Below, in pieces: positions 1 through 20,000 of a DNA stretch of 20,000 nt. This DNA comes from Psammoneis japonica (Eukaryota). A program made the position numbers and the translations under genes. Below the pieces are notes generated by a model, which searched no databases, was not told where the DNA came from, and was given only the letters and a program-made list of their open reading frames with translations. Where the stretch lies: positions 740,980 to 760,979 of the forward strand of contig QPGO01000021.1 of the NCBI GenBank assembly GCA_008632985.1. Direction: 5' to 3'. Numbering within the stretch: the first letter of the stretch is position 1; each line of letters starts with the position of its first letter.

Positions 1-520
1 CGGTCATTTTCCCACTTGAAGGAGGCGAGGGACCAGCAACTTTTTTCTGGCACCAGCGCGCCTCCTGTTGCTCTAACCCCTCCTTCCCAACAATTGGACA
101 TTTCTTGAATCTCCGTTAGAACATCCTCGTGCGTTGAGTCACAGGTGCCTGGAAAGCATGGGAGATCTGCATCATCGACGAAAGTGCAACACACATGGTG
201 GTGCACGTTCTTGGAGATCGGTGTTGTCACCCGAATGCCGCAACCCTCGGCTTTGAGCACGTTAATTGTTGGTGTGCTTGCAACGAGCCAAATGGCAGGT
301 GCAGCTCCATGGCCTTGAAAGATTCCTTGCAATGGGATCTCCATGGCACCGCATGGTTCTGCTGAGTCTCCGCATGCTGTTCTCACGCAATGCTTCATCT
401 GTGTGAGTGTTCCGATCATCATGAAGACCTCATCTTCTCCAGCTCCAAACCTTCTCATGCAAAGGGCAGCTGCCGCATGTGGGATTCGATCACAGCACGA
501 TTTGGCATCCGCACTGCATG
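1..520 (-). pseudogene. Reverse transcriptase domain of ORF2 (fragment)
   Basis: Manual minus-strand translation gives CSADAKSCCDRIPH (~518-477; family form SxDAKSCYDRI), PLQGIFQGHGAAPAIW (~336-290), the catalytic FVDDADL (~183-163) and WEGGVRATGGALVPEKSCW (~89-33). This frame is missing from the ORF track because it runs off the window. Confidence 0.93.
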
Positions 521-660
521 TTCATCCACTCCCAGGGGAATGACGCATGTTCCCTCCAGCACTCTTTTCGCGGCCGGGGAGTCCGAGTTGCAGCCAAAAT
601 CTTGAAGGAGAGGCGTCTTCATGAATGGGACAGTGCACTGACTTGTCTGAGTTTGTCCAT

Positions 661-770
661 TGCAGTGTGCATGCAGACAAAAGGTCATTTTTGTCACGCC
701 CTTTGTGACATTTAAAGGCTGTGACACGTCGCCGTGATGCATTGACTCTTGTCAGCAGCTGTGTGTTGCA
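661..770 (-). repeat. 3' LTR of the miniature element (110 bp)
   Basis: Ungapped alignment to 1004-1113 shows 11 mismatches, all transitions. It is preceded on the minus strand by the polypurine tract. Confidence 0.9.
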
Positions 771-924
771 CTCCTCCCCATGTGTCACGCGTCCATGCGG
801 CTCTTCACCAACGTGCACTGACACTGCACGGTTTTGGCGGAACAGTGTGGGTACGTGCGAAGGAACACACAGAACTGCACAGAGTTTTACGCGTTCGACA
901 GTGATCAACGTTGCTGCAGACAAC

Positions 925-999
925 TCCCACTCAGGGTTTCGAACCCCTGGCCTCCTGCCTGATGGTTGCCGGTGCGATGAACCACTCCGCTGTGAATTC
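925..999 (-). promoter_or_regulatory. tRNA-like segment with RNA polymerase III A-box and B-box inside the miniature element
   Basis: The minus strand has CAGCGGAGTGG (992-982; A-box TRGCNNAGYGG with the first T as C) and GGTTCGAAACC (945-935; B-box) within a CAGGG...CCCTG stem, 36 nt apart. The acceptor and anticodon stems do not form well, so this is not an intact tRNA. Confidence 0.6.
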
Positions 1000-1003
1000 A
1001 CAA

Positions 1004-1113
1004 TGCAGCATGCATGCAGACAAAAGGTTGTTTTTGTCACACCCTTTGTGACATTTAAAGGCTGCAACACGTCACCGTGATGCATTGGCTCTCATCAGCA
1101 GCTGTGTGTTGCA
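1004..1113 (-). repeat. 5' LTR of the miniature element (110 bp)
   Basis: Direct repeat of 661-770, with TGCA...TGCA termini. Confidence 0.9.
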
Positions 1114-2691
1114 CCATGTCTCGAACGTCCTTTGCCTTTGCGTGCTTCTTCCATTCCCTCTTTCGTTGAGAACACCTTGTCCACCCCGTTGGGTCCTGGT
1201 GCTGTGACCGTTTGGAGTGCCCGTCAGGGTTTGCCCGTCACTCTTTTGATGCGTCGGAACATTCTCTTTTGTCGGCAGCTGTGCCGAACAATTCGTTCCT
1301 CTTTTTCCTGGGTCGTGCCGTTCTCTTCTGCTCGTTTTGCGCACCGGATCTTAAACTCCTCTTGCCAAAGCTTTGCAGCTTGCTTCTTGAGTTTGCAGTG
1401 TCTTTTCATTGCCAGCTTGTGTTCTTCTGACACTTGGTGTGGTCAGAGCAGCAGGGCGTCCATTCTTCCAGTGCACTGCATTCGCCTGTTGATGATCTTC
1501 ATGCTTGCTCTCCGAAAATGGTGCAGCTCATGCACTGGTCTCCATGAGTGAATCTCTTTCCTCGCTTTGTTGATGACGTTGCTAGATTCCACCTCGTTCA
1601 TGTGCAGTTTCCGGCATTTTGCTTTTGCTTCTAGCCTGATCTGATGATTTGTTTGGAAGAGCCGCTCGCATTCTTGTTGTTCTGCAAGGCCAAAGTCGTC
1701 TGAGTTTTCCAGTCGAACAGCTCTTCGTGACAAATCATGCTTCAGAATTTGCGTTGCCACGAGCTGAACGTGCTTCTTCACCACCTTTGGATCGTTCAAT
1801 TTTCCTGCCAGTTGGTCTGAGATGGTCTCAGAAAGTTTTGGTGGGTTGAAACCCAGAGCGCTTGGTTTCGAAACATCAGTCCATGAGAGGCGATGATCGG
1901 AAGTACACAGTCGAAGTCACCAAAGCCAGTCATTCCTGCCTTGGTCACTTCCAAGGCGGGCGACACAAGAATTGCATCAACCGGAATGTCAGACCGGTTC
2001 TTGTTGCATGTTGCCACTGCTGGAAGATCCGGATGCGCAGATTTCAATGCGTTGATGAGGTGAAGCGACCCATGCCACGCAACAAAGGTTGACCCTCGGA
2101 CTTTTTCATTGAAGTCACCTCCAACTGCTGTGAGGTCTCCCTCTGCCTGCCATTCCTCAATGTGGTTTGCCAAGTCTTCTGGCACCGCTCGTCGTGGACA
2201 GTGCAGATCATTCTTTGAAAGAAGACATGTTTCTTGTTGGGAGTGTGCTCTGCCTGGATTGGCGTGGTTGTCCCCAACCGGTCGGCAAATTGTGACGATT
2301 CTTGTGTGCATTCCTGATTTGCCTCGAAGTCTTGCCCATGTCCATCTGCCTGGTCCCGTCGGGTCGTTGCCACTGGAGGTCAGGTGGTGGTTGACATGCC
2401 TTGTTGGCAGATGTCCTGCACCCCGTGCTGCCTCTTGTTTTCTGTTGAGCAGTGTTCGTTGGTTGTGACAAGAGAGCCATGTTTTGACAGACTTCTCCAC
2501 CGGTCTCTCCATTGCTCATGTTTCGGAATTCGCTTGAAGTTCAAGTTGATCTCTGTCAAGCCCATGATGTCAGAATGATGTTCTGTGATCCAATTCATCA
2601 TTCCTTTGTGTTTGTCCTCAGAAGAAAGTGATGCTGGTGGCCCACCAACATTGTGAAAAGCCACTCTGATGGCGTTGTGTCGTTTCATCAA
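1114..2691 (-). pseudogene. N-terminal part of ORF2: apurinic-like (EEP/APE) endonuclease plus linker, frameshifted
   Basis: Motifs spread over several frames: IRVAFHNVGG, DIMGLTEINLN, DPTGPGRWTW, RIVTICRP, GGDFNE, VDAILVS, SDHR (~1900-1889), followed by NDPKVVKK and KCRKLHM. Confidence 0.88.
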
Positions 2692-2899
2692 AGTGTTGTC
2701 ACCCCAAGCCTCATCCAGTTGACGACTGGTAGATTCTCGATTGACGTCCTCCTTTTGCGGTTGTCGTCGTGACTGCTGAGGATGGCAGGGATTGGGGATC
2801 CTGGCCCGCTCCCTTGGCCTGAGAGCTGGGATGGTGGTCTTCCAGGTCTCCTGGTTTGGAGTCCTTCTGGGCCGGACCAGTGTCTGGATCGTTCGCCGC

Positions 2900-5070
2900 T
2901 CATGGCTTTTCTAATTCTTGAATTGGCGCTTCACTCATTTCCTGCACCTCCTTTAGTTTTGCTTGGGTTGAAGGCGTTGTTTTGATGGATGCATCTTCCT
3001 CTTGTTCACATTCGTGGTGGTTCTCCAGATTTGCGAAGTCAAAGTTTGCCAAACGTTTCGTGACAGATGTGTGCTGTGTGTCGTCATCCTCATTCCTGAG
3101 ATGACCCACAGATTCCACATCAGCTGCTTGAGCCAGTTTTGCAGCAACTTCCTGTGCTGCTGCAGGTGGACCTTGTGCTCCATTCTGTCCGCTTGCATCT
3201 TTCTGAGCGTTGGCATCAGAGGACTTCCATCTGTCTGTTCCTTCCGTTTGTGCTTGCTCATCAGTCCACTGCTCCTCCATGCCCCGTGGGTCTTCCTCGA
3301 TCACATCTGACAACAATTCACCATCTTTAGATGTTGTGAGTCCAGTTTCTGGATCACACTCCGCATTCTCGTACATGGCAATCCCTGCAGCTGTGAACCA
3401 TGGTTCTGCGGATGCGCCGCAGACATGCAAACATTCCGGAACAATGTTGTTTGTCATTTGTGAGACTTGATCCACAGATTTTCTTGGGAATGTGATGACA
3501 TGATCGTTCGGCCTGTTCCACTTGACATCCAAGTGATGGATCAATGGAATGCACTTGTCCGGTTTGGCAGGGTCCGGCATTCGTTTCTGCATCAGATGGT
3601 GTCGCAGAGCTGTCTCTCCACCAGCGACTCTTGTCTTTTGGTCCGGGTTGTCAAGAAAGCCGAAATCAAGTTGTCCAATGACTTTCTGACAAAAGAAGTG
3701 TTGTCGTTTTTGAAGCTTGTCGATGTTCTCCTTGGTTTTGTCTGAGGCATGTTGCATGGTGGAGTTCAAGCAGCATGGAACAAAGCGCAGTTCGAGTCCA
3801 AGAACTTTTTTCCAAGCTCCTGCCCTCCACAGTCGTTCCGCTGCAAGTTTGACTTTGTGCGCTTTGCTGGACTCAACAATGATGTGGAGAGCTTCCGGGT
3901 TCTTGTCCGGCGTGTTTCTGTTGAAGGTGGGTCGTTTTCCGTCCCTTCCTGCAATGGATCTCCATTGAATTCCAAGACTGTCGTAGTCTCTGCCCAAGCC
4001 AAGAGCTTTGCTGAATTGTTTGTGCAATGTCCGCTTGCTCATTGTTTTGGTGCTTTGATGTGACCATCCAACACATTCAAAGCGCGTCAATTGACACGGC
4101 ATGGGGTTGCGTCCAATGGAGAATTTACCCATTTCCATGTCTGCAACCATCCCTGAGAGTTGCGAGCCGCAGTCTGCCACAGTTCTAAGATTGCAGTCTT
4201 CTGACACCTGGACGAGTCAAAGTTGGCAGCACATCGTGTGTTCGGCGTTGACTCTTGGGTTCAGGCAGTCTGCCCCCAGGAAGGCACTTGGAATTTCTCT
4301 TTCTTTTGCCAAACCTTCCGGAATGTCTTCTGGAGAAGTGACATCACCAAAGGCATCTTCTGGGTCAGGATCCCATGTGCCGATTCTAACATCTTGTCCA
4401 AGTGTCTCCTGCACTGTCGTGAAGGATTCTCGCAGGATGGAGGACACTGCTTTCAGAGGTTTTTTGGATGGTGGAATGGTCAGAAAGGCGTTGTGGCGTA
4501 ACTGACACCAAGGAATTCCTTCAGTTTGATTGGTGGCTTCTGTTTCTTGTGGTGTGTCAGTCTGCTGTGACTCCCCAACATTGGCTTCTTCCCCGATTTC
4601 TTCATCTTGCAGTGTGTCGGTTTGCTGCGAAGCCTGTTCATTCATCTCTCCTTCATTTTCTTTGTCTGATTCTGCAGAGTGATTCTTGCTTGTGAGTTGT
4701 TGAAGGGCATCTTCATTGGAGGATTCTTCACACATGTGGTCTTCTTCCGTGATTGCAATTTCTGCCGGAGTGATTGTTTTTGATTTTTCCTCCTTTTTGT
4801 TTTTCCTGCTTCGCGCAAAGGGTTTTTCATCGTCAGGTGTGAGTTCCCCCTCCTTGTTGTTGTCTTCCTTGGTGCATGAATTTTGCGCAGAGTTTGTGCG
4901 AGAGTTTTTTTTTTTACGGTCATCTGTTCATTGTTCTCGTTGTTTGTTTCCTCGTTGTGAGATCTTTCGATCATTTCATTCATTTGTCCTTTGCCCTTTT
5001 TCTTTTTGTCTCCTTTGCGTGGAGAGGTGTTTTTCTTTCCGCCGGTGCTTCTGCGTTTTGTGCCTGCCAT
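2900..5070 (-). pseudogene. ORF1 of the retrotransposon (basic N-terminus, acidic low-complexity tract, ~435-aa core), frameshifted
   Basis: Three consecutive minus-strand ORF pieces (5070-4642, 4735-4217, 4207-2900) lie directly upstream of ORF2 on the same strand. No catalytic motif was recognised, so the call is positional. Confidence 0.65.
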
Positions 5071-7930
5071 TGTGCCATTTTTTTAGCTTGTTGTTTGCAC
5101 GCACGTGCGAGTTGTGAGGCATGCAAATTTCATTCTCATGCAGATGTCAAAGCATGCCTCAAGAAGAAGGACAACAACAAGCCACATCGGGGCCAACTGA
5201 GCAGAGGAAGAGCACACTTCGCTGCCCAATGACTCGGTGACAAAAACTCTGCAAAGAACAATCCTTTGCAACAAGATGATGGGCAGAGTTGCGTCAAACA
5301 CAAAAGGCAGAACGCAAATGCAGCGAGTCAACGCTGCCATTGCCGTGCTGCCACGACCTGAACAAGTGAGACCTTCGGTCGGCAACTGACACGATTGTCA
5401 GATTGAACATTCACAACACTTCGTTGCACTGCTGTCGAGGGAACACATGCGTGTCTGCTGCTGATCCCATCCAGCTCTCTGGAGCGTCTGCTTGAAAATC
5501 GAAGGCTCATTTTAAATGGGAGACTGCCGCACCCACACAACTGGCGATGCTAAAGACTTCAGCCTGCCATCACCGTGCTTCGGACATTTTCGATCGGCTT
5601 CAGGCCATGTCTTCAGGCACTGCGTGCCTTCAGACATGTCCTTCTGTCCTCGGCCGGTGACGGTCGGCTTCAGTCGTCACTCTCGCCAGTCATTTGCAGG
5701 AATGACTTGTGTTGGTTCATCGTTTTTGCATCATGTGATGTTTGCAATGTGTGAGATTGGTTGTCTTCTCGGGGCGGTCGTCTTCGTCGCCTTTCGCGTC
5801 ACTGACCACACCATCATTTTGTGTCGTTTGCTCGGACTGCAAATCCGATTGGGTCTGTGCCTCTTGCAGCTCATGGCACATTTCCTGCGGAACCCATCAG
5901 TTGTTGGACTGACATTGTTGTTCGCAGCGCTGTGCATTTACAACACAGATGAAAAAGCAAACCCACGAAACGACACCGCGATCGAAGAGGCCGTCACCAT
6001 TGACAATGGCGTCTTCCAGCGGTCCCACAACAAGAATGCATCACCACCCATGCGACCAGCCAGCACGACGACTGCTCTGGCGGCATGCAGACAGTGGTCT
6101 GTTGCTCAGTCAGTGCGAGAGCCATTGAGTGTGCTGTGCATTCACAGATGTGTTCAGGTCTTTCATCTGTGATGTGGGTTCAGGTGCTGTGTGAACAAGT
6201 CCATGCTGATGGCAAGGGGCGGGGTGCAAGGGTGCCGTGCTCAGGGCCCGGCACAAAGCCGCTCCTCTGGGTGCCTCCTTTCCATGCTGGAAACAAGTGT
6301 GCCACTCATGAGGACTCATTTCTTCAAGCTTCAGAGTCAACCACAGCAGATGTGTCCCCCATCTTCATGTTCTTGTGGAGAACCTCGTCTTGGCTGTGGG
6401 TCGATGCGAGGCACATTTCTGCACACCCACGAAAGAAGTTACGATCTTCCAACACAATTTCTCTCCCAACAGAGCCAGCAACAAATGGCACCTGATTGGA
6501 ACAACAACAGGGTCCTTTGGTGCTCACACTCATCTTGCTGCACAGCAACTCTCTGCTGGCTCGAAGCTTCAGAGCGGCGCCCTTGACTGCTGCAGCAATG
6601 TGGGTCCAAGACTCTGCAGAAATTGCTTGGGTGCACCTGACTGCTGCCTTGTTTTGGTGAGTGCAGCTGCCAAAAAAGCCACCAAAAGCCCAGCAGCACA
6701 GGGTTCCTTGTTGGTGGAGAGCCGCGGGTGGAGATTTGCTCGCTTGCGTCACAAATGTGGCAAATGAAGTAATTTCAGATGCACACAACATTTCATTCAA
6801 GGGATTTTGTTCTGGAACGTGCATTCGCCGAAAATCTTGAGGCACCCTTTTTGCAATTTAGAAAGTTCAATGTCGACTTTTAACACCGGGTTTTTTGAAA
6901 GCTTCATCTGTGAACAGAGAGGAACTGAATCTCAACCTCTGACAATGAAGTTTGTTTTGAATCACCATCACAAACAGAGAAACAATGCCACACATTGGGG
7001 GCAAATCTCCACCGGTGGAGATTTGCTCCCAATGAGTAAATGCACGTGGCACACTTTGCGCAGATTGCACACTGTGTGACATTTTTTTGCTGTGTTCATT
7101 GTGTTGTTGCAAAAGTGCATGACACGTCACACATCCTCAAGTGGAGCAAATGAGATTTGCTCCCCTGGTGGTTGAAAGGTCAAGAGCCAGGCTGGCAGAC
7201 TTGGCAAGAAGCTTTGCACAATTCTTGCCAACACAAAGAGGAAAATCTTCTGGTGCTTTGATGGCCAAACATCCTCTCCCACTGCCTTTGACAATGTGCT
7301 TGAAGCCGCCTGTCTTTTTTCTGGAACATTGGTCGCAAAGCGGCCCTTGCTCAGCTCGGCACACAGCGCGCCTCTTTTTGTTGATCACAGTGTGTGTTGG
7401 TGGGTGCATCTGCAGCCAGTGTGCCATTAACTTCAACAGGCAGTTCGACACTTAGAGAAGAAAGCATGTTTGCCAGAGGAAAGGGCTCCTCTGTCTTTTT
7501 GTTTGTTCTTGTGTGGAGGTTTGCCACACGCTGGCTCTGCTCATTTGCAAAACAACGCTGTGAGCTCTGATCAGTCAAGAGCAAAGCAGGTGAGATTTCA
7601 AAGCCACTGCAAACTGTCTTTGTCTTGTTTCACACTTTGAATTTTCATGGTGTGTTGGGGTGCAGGGAAAGCGGGGAAGTCATGCTTGCTTGGCTGAGAA
7701 GGTTGTCCAAGCAGCAGGATGGCTTGCAAGCATTGGGGCCCCAGGGAGCTGCGTGGTGTGATGTTCTTTTTCGTTTTTTGTGCAGTGCCTGGAAACACAT
7801 TGCAGAGCTTTTGATCAATCATTCAGCGCAGTTCGCGGTTCGTGTTCGCGGATCGTCGCGTCGCATGCTTTTTCTTTTGAGCACCAATGACTCTGTGCGG
7901 TCAGTTTGTCTGTCATTTGGCACCCGCGGG
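5071..7930. mobile_element. Unclassified, TpA-depleted probable repeat/transposon-derived DNA (may include the LINE 5' UTR)
   Basis: Same compositional signature as the LINE, no recognisable protein, and contains short repeated motifs and palindromes. Confidence 0.45.
6993..7034. repeat. 42-bp palindrome (21-bp arms, one mismatch, no spacer)
   Basis: CATTGGGGGCAAATCTCCACC|GGTGGAGATTTGCTCCCAATG read directly from the sequence. Confidence 0.9.
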
Positions 7931-8003
7931 CATACTGTAGTGTTGTTTCGAATGTGGAATGAATTCCCGATCTCTACTCTCTAGTAGCTCTGCTACCGTA
8001 GAT

Positions 8004-8027
8004 AGAGAGAGAGAGAGAGAGAGAGAG
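8004..8027. repeat. (AG)12 microsatellite
   Basis: Perfect dinucleotide run. Confidence 0.95.
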
Positions 8028-8434
8028 CTGTTAGGCAACAGCAACGAATTTGGTCCCGAGTCTTTTCAGAGTTGTTTTCTCATCACAATGTGTTGGGAGC
8101 TGTAACGTCGTGGATGACTTTTTGCACTCGGGTGAGGAGTCACACCCTTTGCTCTGCAAACAACTTGCTAGAGGTCGAGAAGCATCAATGAGAGCTAGAG
8201 AGGGTACATTCATGCATTTGTTTAGGTCTTTCATGTAAGATATGCGTTCAGGTGTAAATAACTCCGTGACATCGACTACAGATAAGGAATGGAGGGCACA
8301 TACCTGGATCCATAAACCATTTCTATACTGTTTTCTCTCCGCGGTGAACCGGTGCCTTTGGCTCATCCAAGAGGGTAAAGCTTATAATCTGAGTTTCTGG
8401 GATACGTGATGGCCCCAAAGCCAAGAACTCTTTT

Positions 8435-9310
8435 TTAGCAATATAGATCTTCAGCCCACGCCTGCTTGACTCGTGGGTCGAGGTTCGACAATTGGTTCAG
8501 TCTCTTTTCTATAAAGTCGACATTCCCCTCCTCTTCCGATTTCATTTCAAGTGGCGCTTCGAAACGAACATGCATTGAAGCCACGCTCAATTTCTTACGC
8601 ATGGCATGTACAATAGGGACCAACTGAGCATCGTATGAATCACCTCCTTTATAAGAGGTCCACAGGTTGGCATGTTTGGCCTTGAACGAAAGCGGGCCAA
8701 AATGCCAGTCAATGCGTGGAAGAATGTGCTTGGCATTGTCCATTTCCTCTTGGATACCCGCGTCAAACACAGGCAAGCTGAAATTCAGTTTTGTAAGTTC
8801 CTTCTTTGTGACAGCATCTAAAAACAGATTGCCATACATTTCCGAGTGAAATTGTTCACACGGATAAGTCTCCTGAAACAGAGACAAAGACCGATACGGA
8901 ATAATCACATCTTCGCTTCGTTCTTGAACGCCACGCCAATGATGCACCATGTTTACTTTCTCGGGTTCTTGCCAGCACAAAATCGTATCTTCTCTGACTC
9001 CAAGTAGACCGCTCGCGATCTCTGCGGCCTCTCGCAGAGCCGCGCCCTTTTTCCCCTTTGCCGTCTGGCGTTGAACTAATGCCCCAGAAGACAAGAGCTG
9101 ATTGTGCACCTCGTCACTGGGAGAGCCGTCCACCACCACAACTGCAGTCCCATTAGTTCGGCACTCTGCCAGCATGTTCATACACATCTGGAATCGAATG
9201 TCGGCGGTAGACTCATAACGTGTGACGGTGAAAATCAAGTAGCCACGAGACTTAATAAGCTGCTCCAAAGATTCCGGGGTAGTGCTCATGACGATGCAAG
9301 TCCGTTGCAA
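8435..9310 (-). CDS. Uncharacterised GT-A-fold (nucleotide-diphospho-sugar transferase-like) protein, 291 aa; start could be Met at 9289
   Basis: Intact single-exon ORF with normal amino-acid composition. It has VVVVDGSPS (GT2-like VVDDGS), GKKGAALREAA (GKGxA-like) and LCWQEPEK at the position of the DxD motif. Confidence 0.7.
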   Translation of the reverse strand: MQRTCIVMSTTPESLEQLIKSRGYLIFTVTRYESTADIRFQMCMNMLAECRTNGTAVVVVDGSPSDEVHNQLLSSGALVQRQTAKGKKGAALREAAEIASGLLGVREDTILCWQEPEKVNMVHHWRGVQERSEDVIIPYRSLSLFQETYPCEQFHSEMYGNLFLDAVTKKELTKLNFSLPVFDAGIQEEMDNAKHILPRIDWHFGPLSFKAKHANLWTSYKGGDSYDAQLVPIVHAMRKKLSVASMHVRFEAPLEMKSEEEGNVDFIEKRLNQLSNLDPRVKQAWAEDLYC

Positions 9311-9702
9311 TGCTGTAAGGTAGCTTCAAGACGTCCGAAACGAATGTTTCTCGGGTTGCTGTCATCGCCTCGCTCTCGCTCGCTCCTCTTGGAAATCTTC
9401 GATCGGATATCTGGAGGATCTGGAGGACTTCCTTTTCCTAGTGTTCTCTCTCTTTCACTATACGTTTGTATTAACATCTTATAGGAAGACCTCGTTTCTG
9501 GAGCTATCACAGAACGCAAAACGACGATAGAAAAAGCAACATCAATCCTGATGACAGAACCAGCCTGAAACTCCTATTTGCTTCTGTGTTTCTTTTAGGG
9601 GATGTGTCAACGGAAGGAAACAGCGTGCACTGTGGCTTATTGCAGCTATAGTCATCGATTTTGTTCGCCGTTTTTAAAAAAGAAAACGTTGCACCGTAGG
9701 AC

Positions 9703-12700
9703 ATGAGGATGACACCCACTGGTCACAGTCAAAGGCGATTGCCTTTGGAAGGACGATTCTTTGCTCGGTCTCATGAGCTCAGCCGAATACGTTCGTGTCT
9801 CGATTCCGAGCCTTCAGGGGTAAAAGTTGTGCTTGTTTCAGGCTGTAGCGGTGTCGGAAAATCTAGATTGCTTCGTGCCGCTCTAACTTCGAGTACCCCT
9901 CGATTGATTGGATGCGCAAAGTTTGACTCGCGGTTTGCTCCGTTGGAAGCCATTCAAGACTGTGTTGTCGACATTGTTCGAAAGATCCAAGCGAATGAGG
10001 CCCTTTTGCATTTGATTCGTCAGCGACTTGGAGATAGCATGGAAGATGAGCACAAAGACATGTTGATGTCTGTGATTCCAGAAACGAGGGCTGTGCTTCA
10101 GTTCGAAACAGATGAAGAGGAAAAGACGAATGAGGAGAGGTCGGTAGCCCATACCGGTACAATGAGCAATAGTAAAGAAAACATGCTGCAGCTTCAAATG
10201 GCCCTGAAGGCCTTCTTGTTTGCAGTGGCTGGATTTGAGAAGGTTGTCCTTTTACTTGACGATCTTCAGTGGTGTGGTCAAGATTCCTTTGATGTTATCT
10301 TGTCTGTGTTTACAGAGCCAAATGCCTCCAATATGGTGCTTTGTGCGTCGTATCGGGATAACGAAATCAGGAGTGAGCTAATAATGTTTATGAACAAGCT
10401 AACAAACTCTCTACCATCACCGGCGATTTGCTCTGTGAGTCTGAAAGCCTTCGATGCAGCGTCCATCAATGACATGATGGCTTCCCTTCTAAATGCTGAC
10501 TCTAACGAAGAAACGTCCAACCTTGCCGGGATCATTCATCAACGCACCGACGGGAATATTTTTTTTGTAAGGCAGTTTCTTGAAGAGTTACAAAGAGAAG
10601 GGCTTCTCCGGTACAACTTCATTGCTTCTAAATGGGAATATGACGTACAACAGATCCAAGACAAAACAGCTCTCTGCGAGAACATTGTTCAGATCGTCAC
10701 TAAAAGAATCCATCGATTAGACCCGCCCATCCGGGATATCTTAAAGCTACTTGCCTGCTTTGGATGTCGGAGTAATGCTTCGACCTTGGAAATGTGTCAA
10801 TCGGTCTTTTCTGAAATCTCGAATACGGGTGAGCTACTTCAAGTGGCATGTACCCAAGAGCGTCTACTGGACGATCTTGGAAATGGATGGTATAAGTTCA
10901 GTCACGACAAAATTCTCGAATCTGTCAAGTCCATGCTACCTACTGGAGAGGAGCTCAATAAGCTACACTGGGATATCGGGATGTTCCTATTTGACGCTCT
11001 TGATGGTGCAACCACAGATCGCGACCGCCTTCGTTTCATGTGCGCGGACCAGATCAACTTGGGCGGAGCTCGTTTCGTCGAGGGAGAAAAGCATCGTGTT
11101 CAGCTTGCCAAGCTCAACTTGGACGCTGCCAAGTCGGCGTCGAGGCTATCGGCGTTCCATCCAGCTTGCAGATACTGCCAAGCTGGAATTGACATTCTTG
11201 GAGAGAACATGGCCGGTTCTTTGAACGTCGCGCTCGACTTGTATGTTCACTTTGCCGAAATGCTGTTTTGTTGTGGTGATATGACCCGAGCGAGAGAATA
11301 TTGTGACAAGATCTTTGCATCTGGGACACTGGAGCACAAAGTCCGATGCTACGTGACCATGTTGCAAATTCTCTTGTCAGAGGCAAAGAATCATGATGTT
11401 GTCGACTTTGGGTTACGGGCTTTGAAAGCACTTGGCGAAACCGTACCCCCAAAGCCCAACAAACTTCAAGCCCTCTATAGCTACAAGATAATGGCAAAAA
11501 TGCTGAACGATTCCACTCCTGAAGATATCCTCAGCTTGCCGATCATGAAAGACCCTGGAAAGGCCGCGCGTACTGAAATTTTGTTGGCTATGGTGATGCC
11601 TATCGTTCATCTCGCAATGACCAATTTGTATACGGTAGTGGTTGAGCGGATGCTAAGTCTAACCTTTCAGTACGGGTTGACAACCGCAGCCCCTGAGGCC
11701 TTCGCCATAGCAGGAGCAGAAGTCATTGCACACCGAAATGATCTTAAGCATGCATATCAGCTTGGGAAGCTGGCCGTTTCCTTGGCGGATCGACTGAAAG
11801 CAACGAGTGTCAAAGCAAAGGTATATATGTGGACTAGCGCCTTCACGCAATGGTGGATGGAGCCGCTTGCTCACTGCCTTGAATCAGCACTGAAAGGCTA
11901 TCATGCTGGACTTGCTGTTGGCGATCAGCATTACGGCTTTCATTGTATTTCAGCGTATGCTCTAACGTACGGATACTCGGGAATTCCGTTGTTACCTCTT
12001 CTTGATGATCTTGATAAATATGGTCAGCAGATGATTGATTATGGACAGTTCATGGTCTTGTTTTGCATCATTCCCATGTGGCAGTTTGTCTTGAATCTTT
12101 GTGGGAAATCTGACTCGCCGCTTGATATGTCTCGAGGCTACGCTCTCGACAAGCAGAAGCTGGCGGGGAACGAAGAGAGGATTGGAGAACAAGCTTGTTG
12201 GTCATTTCTGATGCAGTTGTGCTTTTACTTTGATGACATCGAGAAGGCTAGTGATCTCTCCCACCGGCTCAACGTCTAGACATCGGATTTGCGAGAGCCG
12301 AAGTGTTTTTCCCTGCCAGAGTATTCTTTTTCTCCCTAATCGCGATTGAGCAGTTCCGTCGCACAGGAAAGCGAAAGTTCAAGTTGGAAGCGAAGATGCA
12401 TGTGGAGCTGATAATGAAATGGATAAAGCTCGGTGCGAAAAATTTGGTGCACAAAGGTATGATCCTTCAGGCTGAGATGGACTCGCTTACTTCAAAAGAC
12501 CCTCATGTCGTTCGATCAAAGTACGATAAGGCATTTTCATGCGCCACGAGGAGTGGCTTTTTGCAAGATGGAGCTCTCGCGTGTCAACTTGCGGCTTCTT
12601 TTTGCAAGAAGGTGTTACCAGACTGCATGAACCAGTATGTTGTAAAAGCGTGGGAGCAGTGGATGGAGTGGGATGCGATTGCAGTGGCAAAGCACCTAGA

Positions 12701-12848
12701 AAAAAAGTATGCTGGCATTCTTGGTAGCACCAAATTGATCCGGTTGGGTGATCAAGGCTCGCTTCTTGGGAGAAATGGATTTCGGAGTCGTTCCCGTTTT
12801 TCTGAATCTGCTGCTAAGAAGCATGAGAAGTTGAACTATGGACCTTAA
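9703..12848 (+). CDS. STAND-class P-loop ATPase (AAA_16 / COG3899-like) with helical TPR-like C-terminus, copy 1; one frameshift at ~12269
   Basis: Motifs are FFARSHE, Walker A GCSGVGKS, Walker B VVLLLDDLQW, SYRDNE, TDGNIFF, YKFSHDKI and LAKLNLDAA. ORFs 9703-12279 and 12303-12848 are joined by restoring one base (CGGCTCAACG versus CGGCTTCAACG in copy 2). Confidence 0.88.
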
Positions 12849-13376
12849 GGCTGCTCCTTTTTGGTCGATGTTCCCGAGAGAGACAAACATCCAGTCATAA
12901 GGATCTTCTAGTGGTGGATGGCCGCCATCGAGACCAAATGTCCAAAACCGCAAAAGAGACAGTCAGCATTTCTTGGTAACGTTGAACCTTTCAGCTTTCA
13001 CGAGTAGGGAGTGAAGAGCTCTAACTCGGTCCTGTCCTTTTCCTAGAGTGTTCTCTCTCTTTCACTACTAGTTCTGTATTACCATCTCATAGGAAGACCT
13101 CCTTTCTGGAGCTACCTATTACAGCCAGAACAACGCGCAACTATCTCGCACGCAACTCGCAACAATCCGCAGAGGTCTCGCAGAAGATCAGATCACCGCG
13201 ACGACGGTCCTTTGCACCCACATCCTCTAGCTAGCGGTATTTGCTTCTGTGTTTACTTTTAGGGGATGAGTGAACAGAAGGCAACAGTGTGCACTGTGGC
13301 TTATTGCAGCTATGATCATCGATTTCGTTCGCCGTTTTTAAAAAAGAAAACTTCGCACCGAAAGACCTAATAAAGA

Positions 13377-16300
13377 ATGACACCCGCTGGTCACAGTCAA
13401 AGGCGATTGCCTCTGGAAGGACGATTCTTTGCCCGGTCTCATGAGCTCAGCCGAATACGTTCATGTCTCGAGTCCGAACTTCAGGCGTAAAAATTGTGCT
13501 TGTTTCAGGCTGCAGTGGTGTCGGGAAGTCGAGATTGCTTCGTGCCGCTCTGACTTCGAGTACCCCTCGATTGATTGGATTCGCAAAATTTGACTCGCGG
13601 ATTGCTCCGTTGGAAGCCATTCAAGACTGTGTCGTTGATATTGTTGGAAAGATTCAAGCAAATGAGAATCTTTTGCATTTGGTTCGTCAGCGACTTGGCG
13701 ATAGCATGGAAGATGAGCAGAAAGACATGTTGATGTCTGTCATGCCAGAAACGAGGGCTGTACTTCAGTTCGAAACGGATGACGAAGAAAAGAAGCAAGA
13801 TGAGAGGTCAATGACGAAGACTATTAGCAGCAATAAGCAAAACATGCTACAGCTTCAAATGGCCCTGAAGGCCTTCTTTTCACGGTAGCTGAATTTGAGA
13901 AGTTGTCCTTTTACTCGACGATCTTCAGTGGTGTGGTCAAGATTCCTTGGATATTATCTTGTCTGTGTTTACAGAGCCAAAGGCCACCAACATGGTGCTT
14001 TGTGGGTCGTATCGGGACAACGAGATCACGACTGAACTAAAGACTTTTATGAACAGCATGTCTGACTCTCTAGCATCGCATGTGATATGCTCAGTGACGC
14101 TGAAGGCCTTCGATCCAGCAGCCGTCAATGACATGCTGGCTTCGCTTTTGAGTGTTGACTTGAAAGGAGAAACGTTCGAGCTAGCGAATGTCATTCATCA
14201 GCGCACCGATGGGAATATCTTTTTTGTGAGGCAGTTTCTTGAAGAGTTACAACGAGAAGGGTTTCTTCGATACAACTTCATGACCTCTCAATGGGAATAT
14301 GACGTGCAACAGATCCAAAACGAAACGGCACTCTGCGAGAACATTGTTCAGATCGTCGCTCAAAGAATCCATCGACTAGACCCGCCCGTCCGGGATATCT
14401 TAAAGCTACTTGCCTGCTTTGGATATCGGAGTAATGAATCGACCTTGGAAATGTGTCAATCGATCTTTCCTGAAATCTCGAATGTGGGCGAGTTACTTCA
14501 AGTGGCATGTACCCAAGAGCATCTACTGGACGATCTTGGAAATGGATGGTATAAGTTCAGTCACGACAAAATTCTCGAATCTGTCAAGTCCATGCTACCT
14601 ACTGGAGAGGAGCTTGATAAGCTACACTGGGATATCGGGATGCTTCTTTTTGGCGCTCTTGATGGTGCAACCATAGATGGTGACCGCCTTCGTTTCATGT
14701 GTGCAGACCAGATCAACTTGGGCGGAGCTCGATTCGTTAAGGGAGAAAAGCATCGTCTTCAGCTTGCCAAGCTCAACTTGGACGCTGCCAAGTCGGCGTC
14801 GAGGCTATCGGCGTTCCGTCCAGCTTGTCGATACTGCCGAGCTGGAATTGACATTCTTGGAGAGAATGTCGCCGGTTCTTTGCATGTTGCGCTGGACTTG
14901 TATGTTCACTTTGCTGAAATGCTGTTTTTGTTGTGGTGATATGACCCGAGCAAGAGAATACTGCGACAAGATCTTCGCGTTTGGAACACTGGAGCACAAA
15001 GTCCGATGCTACGTGACCATGTTGCAAATTCTCTTGTCAGAGGCAAAGAATCGTGATGTTGTCGATTTGGGGTTACGAGCTTTGAAAGCACTTGGCGAAA
15101 ATGTACCCAAAAAGCCCAACAAGCTTCAAGCTCTACATAGTTACAAGAGAACAACCAAAAGGCTGAACGATTCCACTATTCAAGATATTCTCCTCGTACC
15201 GGTTATGAAGGACTTCGTCAAAGCGGCTTGTATTGAAATCATGCTTGCAATGGAGTTACCTATAGTTCATCTCGCAATGATCAATTTGCACACAGTGATT
15301 GTTGATCGAATGCTAAGTCTCACTTTCCGTCATGGATTGACTACTGCAGCCCCTGAAGCCTTTGCAGTAGCAGGGGCGGACGTCATTGCACAGCGAGACG
15401 ATCTCAAGAACGGATACCAGCTTGGGAAACTAGCTGTCTCCTTAGCGGACCGACTAAAAGCGACAAGTGTGAAGGCAAAAGTTCACATGTGGTTCAGTGC
15501 TTTCACTCAGTGGTGGGTGGAGCCGCTTGCCCAGAGTCTCGATTCTGCTTTGAAAGGTTACAATGCCGGACTGGCGGTCGGCGATCAACACTACGCGTTT
15601 CACTGCATCACTGCCTACACCACTGCCTACGTCTATTCGGGCATTCCGCTGTTACCTCTTCTTGATGATCTTGATAAATATGGCCAGCAGATGATTGACT
15701 ACGGGCAATTTATGGTCTTGTTTTGCGTTATTCCAATGTGGCAGTTTGCCTTGAATCTTTGTGGGAAATCTGACGCGCCGCTTGACATGACTCGAGGCTA
15801 CGCCGTCGACAAACAGAAGCTGGCGGGAAATGACGAAAAGATTGGAGAACAAGCTTGTTGGTCATTTCTGATGCAATTGTGCTTTTACTTTGATGACATC
15901 AAGAAGGCCAGTGATCTGTCCCAACGGCTTCAACGCCTTCAAATAGGAATTACACGGGCCGAAGTGTTTTATCCGACAAGAGTGTTCTTTTTTTGCCTTA
16001 CTGCGATCGAGCAGTTTCGTCGTACAGGAAGGCGAAAGTTCAAGCTGGAAGCGAAGAAACATATGCGGCAGATTACGAAATGGATAAAGCTCGGTGCGAT
16101 CAATTTAGTACACAAAGGAATAATTCTTCAAGCCGAGATAGACTCGCTAACTTCAAAAGACCCTGTTGCCGTTCGATCGAAATACGACAAAGCGATTTCA
16201 TGTGCCACCCGGAGTGGCTTTTTGCAAGATGGAGCTCTCGCGTGTCAGCTCGCAGCATCGTTTTGCAGAAAGGTTCTGCCAGACTCTATGGAACAGTACG

Positions 16301-16521
16301 TATTCAATGCCCACGAAAACTGGATGGCCTGGGACGCAATTGCAGTAGCACATCACCTTGAAATGAAGTATTCTGACATCCTTGGCGACAAGGCGAGCTT
16401 ACGTTTGATGCGATCGGGCAATGAAGCTTCTCAGAAGCGTGGATGCAGCGGATTCCGAAGTCGCCCCCGCTTTTCCGAATCTGCCGCTAGGAAGCATGAC
16501 CACTTAGACTACGAGAAGTAG
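13377..16521 (+). CDS. STAND-class P-loop ATPase, tandem paralog (copy 2); four 1-bp indels
   Basis: ATG at 13377 gives MTPAGHSQRRLPLEGRFFARSHEL, collinear with copy 1 through to the stop at 16521. Indels relative to copy 1 are at ~13479 (-1), ~13880 (-1), ~13902 (-1) and ~14927 (+1). No in-frame nonsense codons were seen once these are corrected. Confidence 0.82.
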
Positions 16522-16799
16522 TGGTTGGCTCGTTGATCGGAAAAGGTGCCAGATCCTTGTAGTGCTTTAGGAATAGTGCGGGAGTCAGTGTTTTATCGTC
16601 GAGGCAACGATGAGGCGCTACAACGTTGCCACGTCGTCTCTTTTGCACATCGTCAAGGCACTATATAACTGGCCAGAATCCATCATGCCTGAAAAAGGTT
16701 CCTTGCGCCCACATTAATAGACATAATAAGTAATTGTTTGCTACAATAATGGAAACGATGGAGTGTACACACTCACACAAGACGCATTCTATAGAGCAC

Positions 16800-19105
16800 C
16801 TACAGTTGCCCTTTCTTGTATTGAATAAACCTTGACGCATTCAGCGCGGTCTCCTTCCACTGTTCCTTGTCCTGCGGAGTGCCACCGCCGCCACTGATTC
16901 CTTTTTTGAATGGAGGTAAAGTCCGCTGAAAGTTTCCCAGCACATCCAGCGAGACAAAGACGTCCGCATGAACGTCATCTTCACCATAAATGTCCATGAG
17001 AGCATTGAACGCTTCGCTCTGAACCATGGTGGACGAGGATGCCAAGGATGTCAAAAGAGCAGAACAAACCTTGGTGTTGACTTGTGTGGAATGCGTCTCG
17101 GAACCGCACAAGATTCCCAGCATACTCGCTGCGTCGCGTGTAGGAATGGATAATTTGCGTTTTGCAGCAAGGACACGAGGAAATCCAAATGGTCTTGTTC
17201 GATCTGGGAACGCAACACGGGCCGCGTCCTTTGTGCCACCACCATGGCGCTGCTGATACCCTCCAAAACTCCGTCAATCGATGCCACGGACGACACCGAC
17301 AAGAGCGCCTGTAGGCACTGCACAAGTTCGTTCCACACGGCAATCGGATCCGACGACCGCCACGAGGGCAAATTGGCAATGCAGTTTCCGATGCAACCAC
17401 CACACTTGGAAATCAAATCGGCGACCTCCTGCATCACATAAAGCGGGACGATATTATTCTCGTTTGGTTGATGAGGCGAACAGAGATTCTTCAACAAGAC
17501 GACAAGACCATCGGCGAGTCCCTCTTGTACAAGAATGTCCGCAACGGCTTGGTCCAAGGGATGCATCTCGAGTTGCTCTTGTTGTTGGTCCGCCGCGCCT
17601 TGTTGCGCCGCCAAGAGTTGCGCCTCTTGTGTCGGTCCCCAATCGTCTTCCTCCATGGCGTCTTCCATATCCACGGATGCATTGTCAATACTATCTTCTT
17701 GTACCAAGCTACCCGTCAAATTTGCCGATATCTCTAGTGACAAGTGCAAGGGTAGCAGAGCCGAATGCCACGCCTGTCGAGCCTTGTCCATGCTTTCTCG
17801 GCAATCCTTGTTGGATTTTGCTTCGTCTTGCTGCATGGGTTCGTCGTCCTTGTCAATCTTCATTTCACCACCATTGTCCATATTATTTGCGTCTTGCTGT
17901 TTCCCTTCACCTTCTCCAGCAATTGCCATTTTTTGACTAATTTCCTCCTTGGCTTGTTTTTGACGCCTTGCAATCAATCTCGCAGGTTCTTTGCGCCGAT
18001 TGACCGTTTCAATCACTTGCTGCTCCAAAGCGTCGTCGGCCTGTTCCTTTTTATAAGCCTCTCGTGTTTGCACAATATTGGCAATCAATCCTTGTGCCGT
18101 CTCCTTATCGTAGGTTAGGTGATTCTTTAAGAGTGGAACGACAGACGCTTGAATTTGGTTTTGAAGAATTGAAATCAACTCGGATCGAGCAGAGTCGTTT
18201 TCATGACTACACAATACCATTTGACGAATCGACACGAGACATCCCGCGGCATGAAGTTGTGCGGGTGGAGTCAGCTTGTTGTTGCTGCTGGAATGATGAC
18301 AAGATGACACCAAAATATCAATTCCATGTCGAAACGTCGAGCCGTCGTTGTGCATCATCCATGCCTCGAGCAGATCCATGTTATCGTCCAAGGCGGAATG
18401 CAAGGTTCGAACGGCATACACCGTCACGTCTTGGGTCCATTCCAACATCATCTCGTCGCTGTCATCATCTTCTTGTTGTTGCTGTACAGCCTTGCTTTGC
18501 CTTCCGCTCAATTCCTCTTGTCCCAATACTAAAAACTTGACAAGCATCGTGACAAATTCTGTAGGCTTGGCCATGATGCGCTCTAAAGCAAGAGGATTGA
18601 TTTCGACTAGAGCACAGAGTGCGTGTAGGCATTGAACCGTGACGGCCCACCAATGATGAAGCCGTTGTTTTGACCGTTTGTTGGATGCAGTATTATCTTT
18701 TGCAGACGTAGAAAGCGCCGCCAGACATTGTTCAAGTCGACTCATCAAGACCACCGTCCATCCGGCCGTCACGTCGTTGTTGCTACTGCTGCTATTGCCG
18801 TAGTACGACACATAATTGGCACAACACCCGGCAGCCGCTTGCGAGCATTCCAAATCGGAATCCATGACGCGTTCCAATACGACTTGAAGAACTTGACTGG
18901 ATATTTTGTAGTCCTTGGAATGCCCGAGTTGAATGGGATGAAACAGCGTCGTGGCGAGCGCCGACAGGGCACCGTGACGAACTTGTGCGTTGCCATGACG
19001 GAGTTTTTTAATCAAGGATGATGTCGTTGTTGCAGAATCATTATTGTTGTTTTGTTGTTGTTGTTTGTTATGACGGTTCCTACGACGACGGCCCTGTTTT
19101 CCCAT
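16800..19105 (-). CDS. HEATR3: HEAT/ARM-repeat protein, HEATR3/Syo1 (symportin-1)-like; one frameshift near 17155
   Basis: The N-terminus is basic (MGKQGRRRRNR, ATG at 19105) and is followed by VRHGALSALA and ERVMDSDLECSQAAAGCCANY, with acidic insertions. C-terminal SEAFNALMDIYGED and ETALNASRFIQYK resemble the HEATR3/Syo1 C-terminus as I recall it. One extra A in GCAAAT joins ORF 19180-17051 to the frame of 17123-16800. Confidence 0.72.
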
Positions 19106-19550
19106 GGTTGATTTTTTGTTCTCTGGAGTGAAAAGATCTGGGATAAAAAAAATGAGTGGCGCAAAAAAGTTGTGGCGCAAAGATCGGCAGTCTTTGCGTC
19201 GACCGTGTCGGAGGGAATTTTCCGCAATTCACTTGTATTCGGATCTATATAACATATTGAATTTTCAATTTTCTGTAGACTTGCAGTATCTTTCGGTTTC
19301 AGTACTGAAATCCTGTAGAATCTACGGCCGCGCATGTCACGGGATGAGAATGAAGAGTCGCGGCCACGAACGAACCTGGAACCTGGATGACCTTCCCGCT
19401 GTCATTGCTTGTTAGTGGAAAAGGTCACACTCCACGATACACAGGAGTCTCTATTAGGTCGCTCCACGATACATTGGAGTCTCTATTATTGCTTTGTCTC
19501 GCGCGCCGCAACAACACAACGCACCACAACAACACATGCAAGCTGCCACC

Positions 19551-20000
19551 ATGATGATGTCTGAAGAGCAAGCCGAAAAAGCCGAAGAGCTTCAGGCTTC
19601 TCGGTTCCCCGCATGGACCGCACTCATGATTTTCTCGTGTGTCGCCTTGATTGCACACACGACAACCGATTACGTCGATGACAGTTCGTCTGAAAAGTGG
19701 GTCACGTCGGTGTGTGCCATTTCACTGGGCATTTCCTTTTGTGCCATGGTGGCACACTTTGTACCCTCATCCAACTTTGTGGGAGAACCCGCTGAAGGTG
19801 GTGGTAAGGCAGCTTGCAGTCTGAATCGCATCATTCACATTCGTTTCTTTTTCATTAGAGTTCGCATCCGCAACACCGACAGCACCAACATTGCTCTCTC
19901 ACAATTTCACAACATGTCATCTTACCTTGCCGTTATTCTCTCTTTTGCCAGTCGCCTTCTTCATTATAATTTTCTGGGCAGCTGGTTTGCCGTCATTATG
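19551..20000 (+). CDS. Multi-pass membrane protein of unknown function, 5' part; exon 1 19551-19803, intron 19804-19951, exon 2 19952->20000
   Basis: Start context is GCCACC-ATG (in-frame upstream ATG at 19536). Exon 1 encodes MMMSEEQAEKAEELQASRFPAWTALMIFSCVALIA...KWVTSVCAISLGISFCAMVAHF...EGG. The donor is GTAAG and the acceptor is pyrimidine-rich ...TTTTGCCAG. The spliced frame continues as the hydrophobic VAFFIIIFWAAGLP. Confidence 0.72.
   Translation, partial: MMMSEEQAEKAEELQASRFPAWTALMIFSCVALIAHTTTDYVDDSSSEKWVTSVCAISLGISFCAMVAHFVPSSNFVGEPAEGGGKAACSLNRIIHIRFFFIRVRIRNTDSTNIALSQFHNMSSYLAVILSFASRLLHYNFLGSWFAVIM

Follow-up and report, generated by a model that had tools for sequence, protein, structure and literature searches.

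What process could have removed almost all TpA dinucleotides from one side of a sharp boundary in a genomic contig? The question is raised by a 20,000-nucleotide stretch of Psammoneis japonica DNA (contig QPGO01000021.1, positions 740,980 to 760,979; hereafter the window, in whose own coordinates all positions are given). Bases 1-7930 contain 33 TA, an observed/expected ratio (O/E) of 0.07, versus 424 TA and an O/E of 0.51 in the flank (7931-20000), and CA and TG are raised in the block (O/E 1.73 and 1.44, versus 1.17 and 1.21, respectively, in the flank). This block, which has no assigned strand and whose left end lies outside the window, is best explained as a cluster of dead mobile elements: a retroelement of the non-LTR type (that is, devoid of long terminal repeats) with endonuclease (EN) and reverse transcriptase (RT), a very-high-copy short repeat nested in it, and further repeats. 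An initial annotation, made from the letters alone, had proposed a conversion of TA into TG or CA that hits either strand of transposon DNA and comes close to saturation. The loss of conserved tyrosines, TA sites in other copies, the baseline of the element family and the strand-symmetric gains all bear this out: the conversion is specific to TA, affects both strands, took place after integration and is regionally bounded.

Extent and composition of the TpA-depleted block

A likelihood change-point scan places the edge of the block at 7930; the interval 7454-7932 is devoid of TA, and TA density is normal from 7933 onward. The depletion is found throughout the block, with rho TA at 0.05-0.16 in all eight 1-kb windows, and includes 5101-7930, the part without recognizable genes (TA O/E 0.06). 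The same edge is common to the non-LTR element, the nested repeat and the terminal ~0.6 kb of the block (7338-7930), which is present at single-copy depth (55.9) and contains just 2 TA (O/E 0.06). A single read-derived contig covers 7122-9951, across the edge, with 7 letters differing. An (AG)n microsatellite is located at 8000-8029, ~70 bases beyond the edge of the TA-free block.

All hand counts given in the initial annotation were reproduced exactly (3 TA in bases 1-600, 33 in 1-7930 and 28 in 8041-8640, along with 29 CG in 1-600). Its description of CpG as plentiful is too simple for the block, where the CpG O/E is 0.63 versus 0.97 in the flank (0.71-0.76 once the gain of C and G through TA loss is corrected for). 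Because the stop trinucleotides TAA and TAG are almost missing from the block (15 and 10 occurrences, respectively, versus 173 of TGA), long open reading frames (ORFs) occur in all six frames.

The TpA loss is mutational and follows integration

The family baseline consists of 80 related elements from metagenomes with RT sequences 42-51% identical to that of the window. Their TA O/E ranges from 0.35 to 0.86, with a median of 0.69; not one of the 80 falls below 0.3, and no 1-kb window in any of them drops under 0.2. On the sense strand of the window element, only TA, CA, TG and, marginally, AT are outside the range of these relatives, and AA, TT, AC, AG, GT and CT are within it. The slight AT deficit is of the kind that erasure of ATA and TAT would yield. 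The loss is specific to TpA, with the other A/T dinucleotides spared.

The protein sequences carry the same mark. Tyrosine accounts for 1.26-3.4% of the residues (median 2.61) in 41 full-length relatives and for 1.3-2.7% in the host proteins encoded in the window, as against 0-0.5% in the ORFs of the window element. The presumptive ORF1 (2900-4216) has only 2 Tyr (0.5%), as pointed out in the initial annotation, and the RT piece has none; the abundance of His and Cys attributed to ORF1 at the same time is clear only in the EN piece (6.2% His) and in the RT piece (8.1% Cys). Conserved alignment columns were defined across 150 relatives, with at least 15 aligned sequences and at least 50% consensus. 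Not one of the nine conserved Tyr columns retains Tyr in the window: four have Cys (TGY), three His (CAY), one Met and one Ser. The other conserved residues examined are mostly kept, namely Trp in 9 of 10 columns, Asp in 16 of 18 and Gly in 26 of 33. In the endonuclease, a Tyr that is 98% conserved is replaced by Cys (TGC) at codon 2287. The RT motifs with the consensus KSCY, HxIRTAYGDS and VGYAFVDD read KSCC, HCVRTACGDS and VCCTFVDD, respectively, in the window.

Two or more Cys or His residues at Tyr columns were found only in the window (4 of 5) and in P0051 (3 of 4) among 147 RT segments, 130 of which have none and 15 one. P0051, a Logan-derived protein of 184 aa that is 52% identical to the RT piece of the window, is the only one of the 146 relatives with this same erosion of Tyr to Cys/His. 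A count of Tyr in the coordinates of relative P0038 also brought up four short relatives that lack Tyr at 4-6 columns; these have at most 2 Cys or His each and were read as lineage substitutions.

The scarcity of TA is equal over the three codon phases (2, 2 and 3 occurrences in ORF1). Because all phases are equally depleted and 5101-7930 is depleted as well, the loss did not arise at the protein level. Taken together, these observations show that the loss of TA is mutational rather than intrinsic to the element family, and that the changes arose after integration and were not inherited from the family.

Strand symmetry and substitution spectrum

Among the Tyr replacements, Y>C, which corresponds to A>G on the sense strand, occurs four times versus three for Y>H, which corresponds to T>C on that strand. 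Relative to the family median, the sense strand shows a shift of +129 TG, +111 CA, -181 TA and -98 CG, so that gains (240) and losses (279) are roughly balanced. At 242 conserved columns, 73 codon differences were found, 30 of which need more than one step. The 43 one-step changes include 19.2 transversions, 7.0 TA>CA, 6.3 TA>TG, 3.5 CG>CA/TG and 7.0 other transitions; the TA-type changes accordingly make up 13.3 of the 23.8 one-step transitions. Both strands are hit about equally, by TA-to-TG and TA-to-CA changes alike.

Additional copies in the same organism were compared using the contigs of one public sequencing run (a single study) that contain this DNA; the differences listed are 40 of 1,881 rows. 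The contigs of this run cover the element at 4-7 times the unique depth. Among the differences listed, at least six are sites at which other copies read TA and the window reads TG or CA. At sites 806 and 809 of the high-copy repeat, T makes up 90% and 74% of the depth, respectively, and the window has C; given this dominance of T, the majority of the repeat family carries TA where the window copy has CA. One of the TAs surviving in the window, at 3984, is CA in other copies. In the initial annotation, a spectrum dominated by CG-to-TG/CA rather than TA-to-TG/CA changes was to count against the idea. TA-type changes outnumber those of the CG type at the codon level (13.3 versus 3.5); among the copy differences listed the two are about as common, with at least seven of the CG type and at least six of the TA type. 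Decay of CpG is also at work in the block, yet it is unable to remove TA.

The surviving TAs are not randomly placed with respect to their neighbors. None of the 33 lies in an ATA or TAT context, to which 49.5% of the TAs belong in the flank (P ~1.6e-10) and 48.5% in 80 related loci (P ~3e-10). When survival relative to the related loci is broken down by the base 3' of the target A, with both strands combined, it is 0 for TAT, 0.08 for TAC, 0.11 for TAG and 0.23 for TAA, i.e., TAT/ATA is the context of the most complete loss. Given that TpA is self-complementary, this 3'-neighbor effect can equally be read as an effect on a thymine flanked by adenines.

Comparison with known systems

The initial annotation knew of no described pathway of this kind. 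This statement is superseded by a 2026 preprint that reports TpA-to-TpG/CpA hypermutation in the chlorarachniophyte alga Bigelowiella natans and arrives at the same ADAT-type idea (Mettrop et al., 10.64898/2026.01.13.699255). According to the preprint, two integrated viral regions accounted for 231 of the 302 nuclear point mutations in mutation-accumulation lines; A>G and T>C changes made up 230 of these 231, and every GC-biased change was on TpA, at a rate of ~6e-7 per site per generation, which is ~1000-fold over the background (Mettrop et al., 2026). The main hypermutated region is described as single-copy, and an ADAT2 homolog is proposed as the agent (Mettrop et al., 2026). The preprint further reports 324 TpA-depleted coding sequences, with enrichment of RT, EN-RT and DDE domains, and 124 genomic clusters that are TA-poor and CA+TG-rich (Mettrop et al., 2026). 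It uses thresholds of rho TA of at most 0.43 and CA+TG of at least 1.52 in 1-kb windows, a cluster being three consecutive windows. All eight 1-kb windows of the block are below the TA threshold, and the three consecutive windows at 5001-7999 form a cluster under this rule.

The two cases, as far as the preprint describes the algal one, are alike in that only TA is changed, to CA or TG, on both strands and in local blocks of foreign or mobile DNA. The scar consists of TpA depletion with gain of CpA and TpG, genes for RT and EN-RT are among those depleted, and an ADAT-type hypothesis has been put forward for both. They differ in the organism and in the targets, a non-LTR retroelement and repeat cluster here as opposed to giant-virus and virophage inserts there. 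Furthermore, the depletion is near saturation here (O/E 0.07), whereas the region derived from a nucleocytoplasmic large DNA virus in B. natans is at 0.45. The order of loss TAT > TAC ~ TAG > TAA and the accompanying loss of CpG were seen here, whereas no neighbor preference was found in the main text of the preprint. Finally, the rate in B. natans was measured in real time, whereas the scar in the window is known from sequence alone. We infer that the window records the same kind of process as the one measured in B. natans. The block is best regarded as the second case of a phenomenon otherwise reported in one preprint, this time close to saturation and with a different organism and different targets; a literature search for this signature in diatoms and elsewhere yielded the B. 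natans preprint only.

Similarity to fungal repeat-induced point mutation (RIP) is limited to the general strategy, in which transitions at a particular dinucleotide permanently inactivate mobile DNA within blocks that have sharp limits. RIP changes C to T, mainly at CpA, and creates TpA, whereas here TpA is destroyed and G+C increases. The RIP signature of raised TpA and lowered CpA/TpG is thus reversed in the block, as the initial annotation had correctly emphasized. With regard to the duplication that triggers RIP at a premeiotic stage, most of the block is multi-copy (4-7x or far more), yet 7338-7930 is at single-copy depth and nonetheless TA-poor.

The vertebrate APOBEC3 system is comparable in being a deaminase-style hypermutation that serves as a defense against retroelements. 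It deaminates cytosine in a single strand of the intermediate of reverse transcription (G to A on the plus strand), whereas the block shows changes of A:T pairs, on both strands and beyond a single element. ADAR, ADAT2/3 and TadA share with the proposed process the A-to-I chemistry and a preference for targets preceded by U or T; A34 of the tRNAs modified by ADAT, for instance, follows U33. These enzymes are RNA editors by default, although amphioxus ADAT2 reportedly edits DNA, and their preferences differ from the pattern in the window, where TAT is the most completely erased context.

Mechanism and alternative explanations

We propose that, after integration, a DNA-level mutator acting on both strands turned TpA into CpA or TpG; an estimated 239-357 events in 7.9 kb would have removed ~88-92% of the original TAs. 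An adenine located 3' of T in DNA would be deaminated to inosine and read as G. The agent might be a DNA-acting enzyme of the deaminase fold, ADAT2/TadA-like or otherwise, which would be recruited to silenced, probably cytosine-methylated foreign DNA. By analogy with the direct measurements reported in the B. natans preprint, the process could be ongoing and regulated. That the loss of TA results from mutation at the DNA level we consider highly probable. If so, adenine deamination has an even or slightly better chance of being the chemistry involved. The explanation as a whole, in which TpA was converted to CpA/TpG by a DNA mutator in a cluster of dead elements after their integration, chemistry included, appears to us reasonably probable, albeit well short of secure.

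As for targeting, the CpG deficit coincides with the TpA depletion and the edge is shared, which suggests that the mutator follows a silenced, probably methylated domain rather than repetition per se. Repetition as such may not be the trigger, given that the stretch of single-copy depth is erased and that the main B. natans target is, according to the preprint, single-copy. The characterization of the loss as repeat-restricted in the initial annotation thus goes beyond what the data show. No candidate gene for the enzyme was found within the 20,000-nt window, in agreement with the original assessment.

The alternative that fares best retains the DNA-level, TpA-specific process but moves the chemistry to thymine. 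T would be converted to 5-hydroxymethyluracil (5hmU) or a base-J-like product, by a TET/JBP-type dioxygenase acting in the ATA context, and mispairing with G would then lead to T-to-C change; alternatively, a specialized error of repair or of a polymerase could be involved. Because TpA is self-complementary, T-to-C and A-to-G changes leave identical products, and the symmetric gains of CA and TG as well as the ATA/TAT effect fit an adenine-flanked thymine equally well. 5hmU is able to mispair, and genes of the TET/JBP type are carried along by transposons. The window offers no positive evidence for thymine chemistry, which we regard as unlikely, if worth keeping in mind. The version that invokes polymerase eta and its WA motif, one of the two candidates named in the initial annotation, is disfavored, given that it predicts loss of ApA: with O/E values of 1.29 (block) and 1.12 (sense strand of the element), AA stays inside the family range of 0.90-1.30.

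Editing at the RNA level would have a different starting point, namely A-to-I conversion of the element transcript by an ADAR- or ADAT-like enzyme with a preference for 5' U, followed by reverse transcription into new copies. The main element is indeed a retroelement, and the 5' U taste of known A-to-I editors, as summarized in the preprint (Mettrop et al., 2026), fits TpA. The strand symmetry largely refutes this scheme: a non-LTR element copies sense RNA only, so that A>G alone would be expected on the sense strand, but T>C is equally frequent, and because both strands are equally hit, editing of sense RNA alone is insufficient. Moreover, the depletion crosses the borders of the element into the nested repeat, the other repeats and DNA of single-copy depth, with one shared edge, and the B. 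natans targets are reported to be DNA-virus inserts, one of them transcriptionally silent (Mettrop et al., 2026). We consider RNA editing very improbable.

Slightly less probable still is an intrinsic composition, in which the lineage of the element shuns UpA/TpA through selection for RNA stability, nuclease avoidance or codon use. TpA is mildly low everywhere, in the host flank as well as in the related elements (0.51 and a median of 0.69), which lends this idea some initial appeal, but for the wider family it is refuted by the absence of any relative near the level of the block among the 80. It is also contradicted by the loss of conserved catalytic-domain Tyr to the one-step products TGY and CAY, by the equal depletion over codon phases and beyond the ORFs, by the depletion that unrelated repeats in the block share, and by the TA that other copies have at CA/TG sites of the window. 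An artefact of sequencing or assembly, such as modification-induced miscalls of TpA in long reads, is the least credible explanation: indel discrepancies relative to the reads (which have an additional A behind 13899 and an additional C behind 2420) suggest imperfect polishing, but the run contigs contain 85% of the sampled 31-letter words of 1-10000, of which several hundred miscalls in 7.9 kb would leave almost none, and neither the Tyr-to-Cys/His codon pattern nor the sharp edge resembles random miscalls.

Several observations weigh against DNA adenine deamination in the form proposed here, or at least weaken the evidence for it. A 3' T or U is not known to be a preferred neighbor in editing by ADAR, TadA or fungal TAD2/3; ADAR disfavors a 3' U, and the base after A34 in tRNA is other than U. 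There is much noise in the codon-level spectrum, with transversions as its largest class and relatives that are only ~50% identical. The comparison of copies within the genome involves changes that are unpolarised on a tree. Among the differences listed, sites with CG in other copies and TG or CA in the window are about as common as TA-type sites (the minimum counts given above), and at least six double differences of the CA/TG type fit an ancestral CG as well as TA. The run used for confirmation may stem from the very sample that was assembled. Finally, the CA+TG threshold of the preprint is reached in only five of the eight 1-kb windows, and CA+TG rho as calculated here may differ from the Rho formula of the preprint.

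Implications

For cytosine, it is established that mobile DNA can be mutated in a programmed, context-specific manner, as in fungal RIP and with APOBEC. The adenine/thymine counterpart rests on a single 2026 preprint on one alga. A near-saturated second example would show that the process can run to completion and would extend its targets to retrotransposons and short repeats besides viral inserts; the phenomenon may be phylogenetically broad. It is tempting to speculate that TpA-directed A:T-to-G:C hypermutation is a wider eukaryotic genome defense by which mobile DNA is permanently erased within silenced, cytosine-methylated domains in at least two distant protist lineages, and that the order TAT > TAC ~ TAG > TAA, with no ATA or TAT left and unlike that of ADAR, TadA and fungal TAD2/3, points to a new DNA adenine deaminase or a thymine-modifying enzyme that has targeting machinery of its own; we put this joint proposal forward as tentative and rather doubtful. 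The order of neighboring bases provides a concrete biochemical test for candidate enzymes, and a naturally occurring deaminase that acts on adenine in DNA at a defined motif would be of interest for base-editing technology. In practical terms, TA-free blocks yield long spurious ORFs in six frames, and genome annotators should be able to recognize such blocks.

Mobile elements in the block

The principal element occupies the minus strand. Its RT core piece (3-545) exits the window at the left end, and the remaining 3' portion of the element is outside; full-length relatives, when used as tblastn queries, align to 545-3. At E<=0.001, 1,988 relatives of the RT piece were retrieved, with alignment identities of 42-56% (56% for the best), and 41 of the best 150 relatives are longer than 1,500 aa. 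The linker and the N-terminal RT region of ORF2 were located at 1119-1901 by tblastn with residues 308-567 of P0038 and with P0039 and P0041, at 28-30% identity. Residues 3-303 of the relatives map to an APE-type endonuclease domain at 1913-2805, which is in two frames with a break near 2420. Read-derived contigs also contain an extra C behind 2420, in two contigs with 111.7 of 145.7 of the depth, precisely at the frameshift of the endonuclease; this frameshift may be confined to the window copy or stem from an error in the assembly. The ORF1-like frames, taken from the ORF list, span 2900-5082 (2900-4216 and 4217-4927/5082); for ORF1 (2900-4216), no relative was detected at E<=0.001 among proteins of 240-767 aa.

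Domain assignments come mostly from the relatives. A lenient Pfam scan of ten full-length relatives identified RVT_1 in five (two above the curated cut-off), Exo_endo_phos in three (one above) and zf-RVT in five (none above). The matches are at consistent positions, with RVT_1 over the stretch aligned to the window piece; P0047 is the relative above the Exo_endo_phos cut-off, and residues 38-276 of the relatives correspond to 2805-1913 of the window. The Exo_endo_phos match in the endonuclease of the window itself is weak (E 0.0048, below the cut-off). At E<=0.001, Pfam searches of the window ORFs and the three closest full-length relatives gave only a weak zf-RVT match, with none for the RT piece. 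A sequence search of PDB with the RT profile and with P0038 returned 0 matches at E<=1, and the AlphaFold model of the RT piece, with a mean predicted local distance difference test score (pLDDT) of 58.6, is too poor for fold comparison. Judging from the RT and the N-terminal endonuclease, the element is an APE-type non-LTR retrotransposon, that is, a long interspersed nuclear element (LINE).

The RT region is interrupted at 658-1114 by a very-high-copy short repeat (~771-1004) with flanking repeats, the latter being 114-nt direct repeats (D1; 658-771 and 1001-1114) that are 89% identical and possibly represent a long target duplication. The short repeat reaches a word depth of 67,020, as compared with 56-62 for unique DNA, and its loose ends are at 771 and 1004. 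Because tRNA and Rfam scans of the window produced no match, there is no evidence of a tRNA origin for this repeat. Further TA-poor repeats, of unassigned kind and with depths of 91-3,541, fill 5101-7337, where Pfam searches of two ORFs gave no match. They include a high-copy segment at ~6671-7337 (depth 3,541), which contains a 48-nt near-perfect palindrome (I1) at 6990-7037 and in which the motif GGAGATTTGCTC recurs at 6722-6741, 7009-7028 and 7152-7167.

Host genes in the flank

The flank encodes a glycosyltransferase-2-like protein (8435-9310, minus strand) and a SYO1/HEATR3-like protein (17051-19108, minus strand), both from apparently intron-less genes. The named matches of the former are from stramenopiles (51%, 49% and 45% identity), a haptophyte (49%) and Euglena (44%), and no relative exceeds 59% identity. 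For the latter, PF25567 is present in the relatives, none of which exceeds 40% identity, and the sole named relative found is from a diatom (30%). Given that the closest relatives of these two host proteins are at 59% and 40%, the organism appears to be poorly represented in public protein data. The proteins searched include those of NCBI, JGI, MMETSP and EukProt, among which a species with a public proteome should give matches of nearly 100%; the host is therefore probably not B. natans and perhaps a stramenopile.

Between these genes are two tandem paralogs of a STAND NTPase (9703-12848 and 13463-16521), with an AAA_16 domain and a long helical C-terminal part; the protein clusters nearest to the STAND NTPase are commonest in diatoms. 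The second paralog is split into three frames, and read-derived contigs carry an extra A behind 13899, within this paralog; for this reason, at least one of the frame breaks may reflect an indel in the assembly and not the decay of a pseudogene. The two paralogs are also joined to each other in some contigs (11439 to 15229 and 15482 to 11842).

Two 500-base windows of the flank, 17001-17500 and 19501-20000, have a relatively low TpA O/E (0.29 and 0.28), with CA+TG at 1.31 and 1.54, respectively, which is far from the level of the block. The first of these overlaps the SYO1-like gene. In 19344-20000 the depth climbs, and a repeat may begin there.

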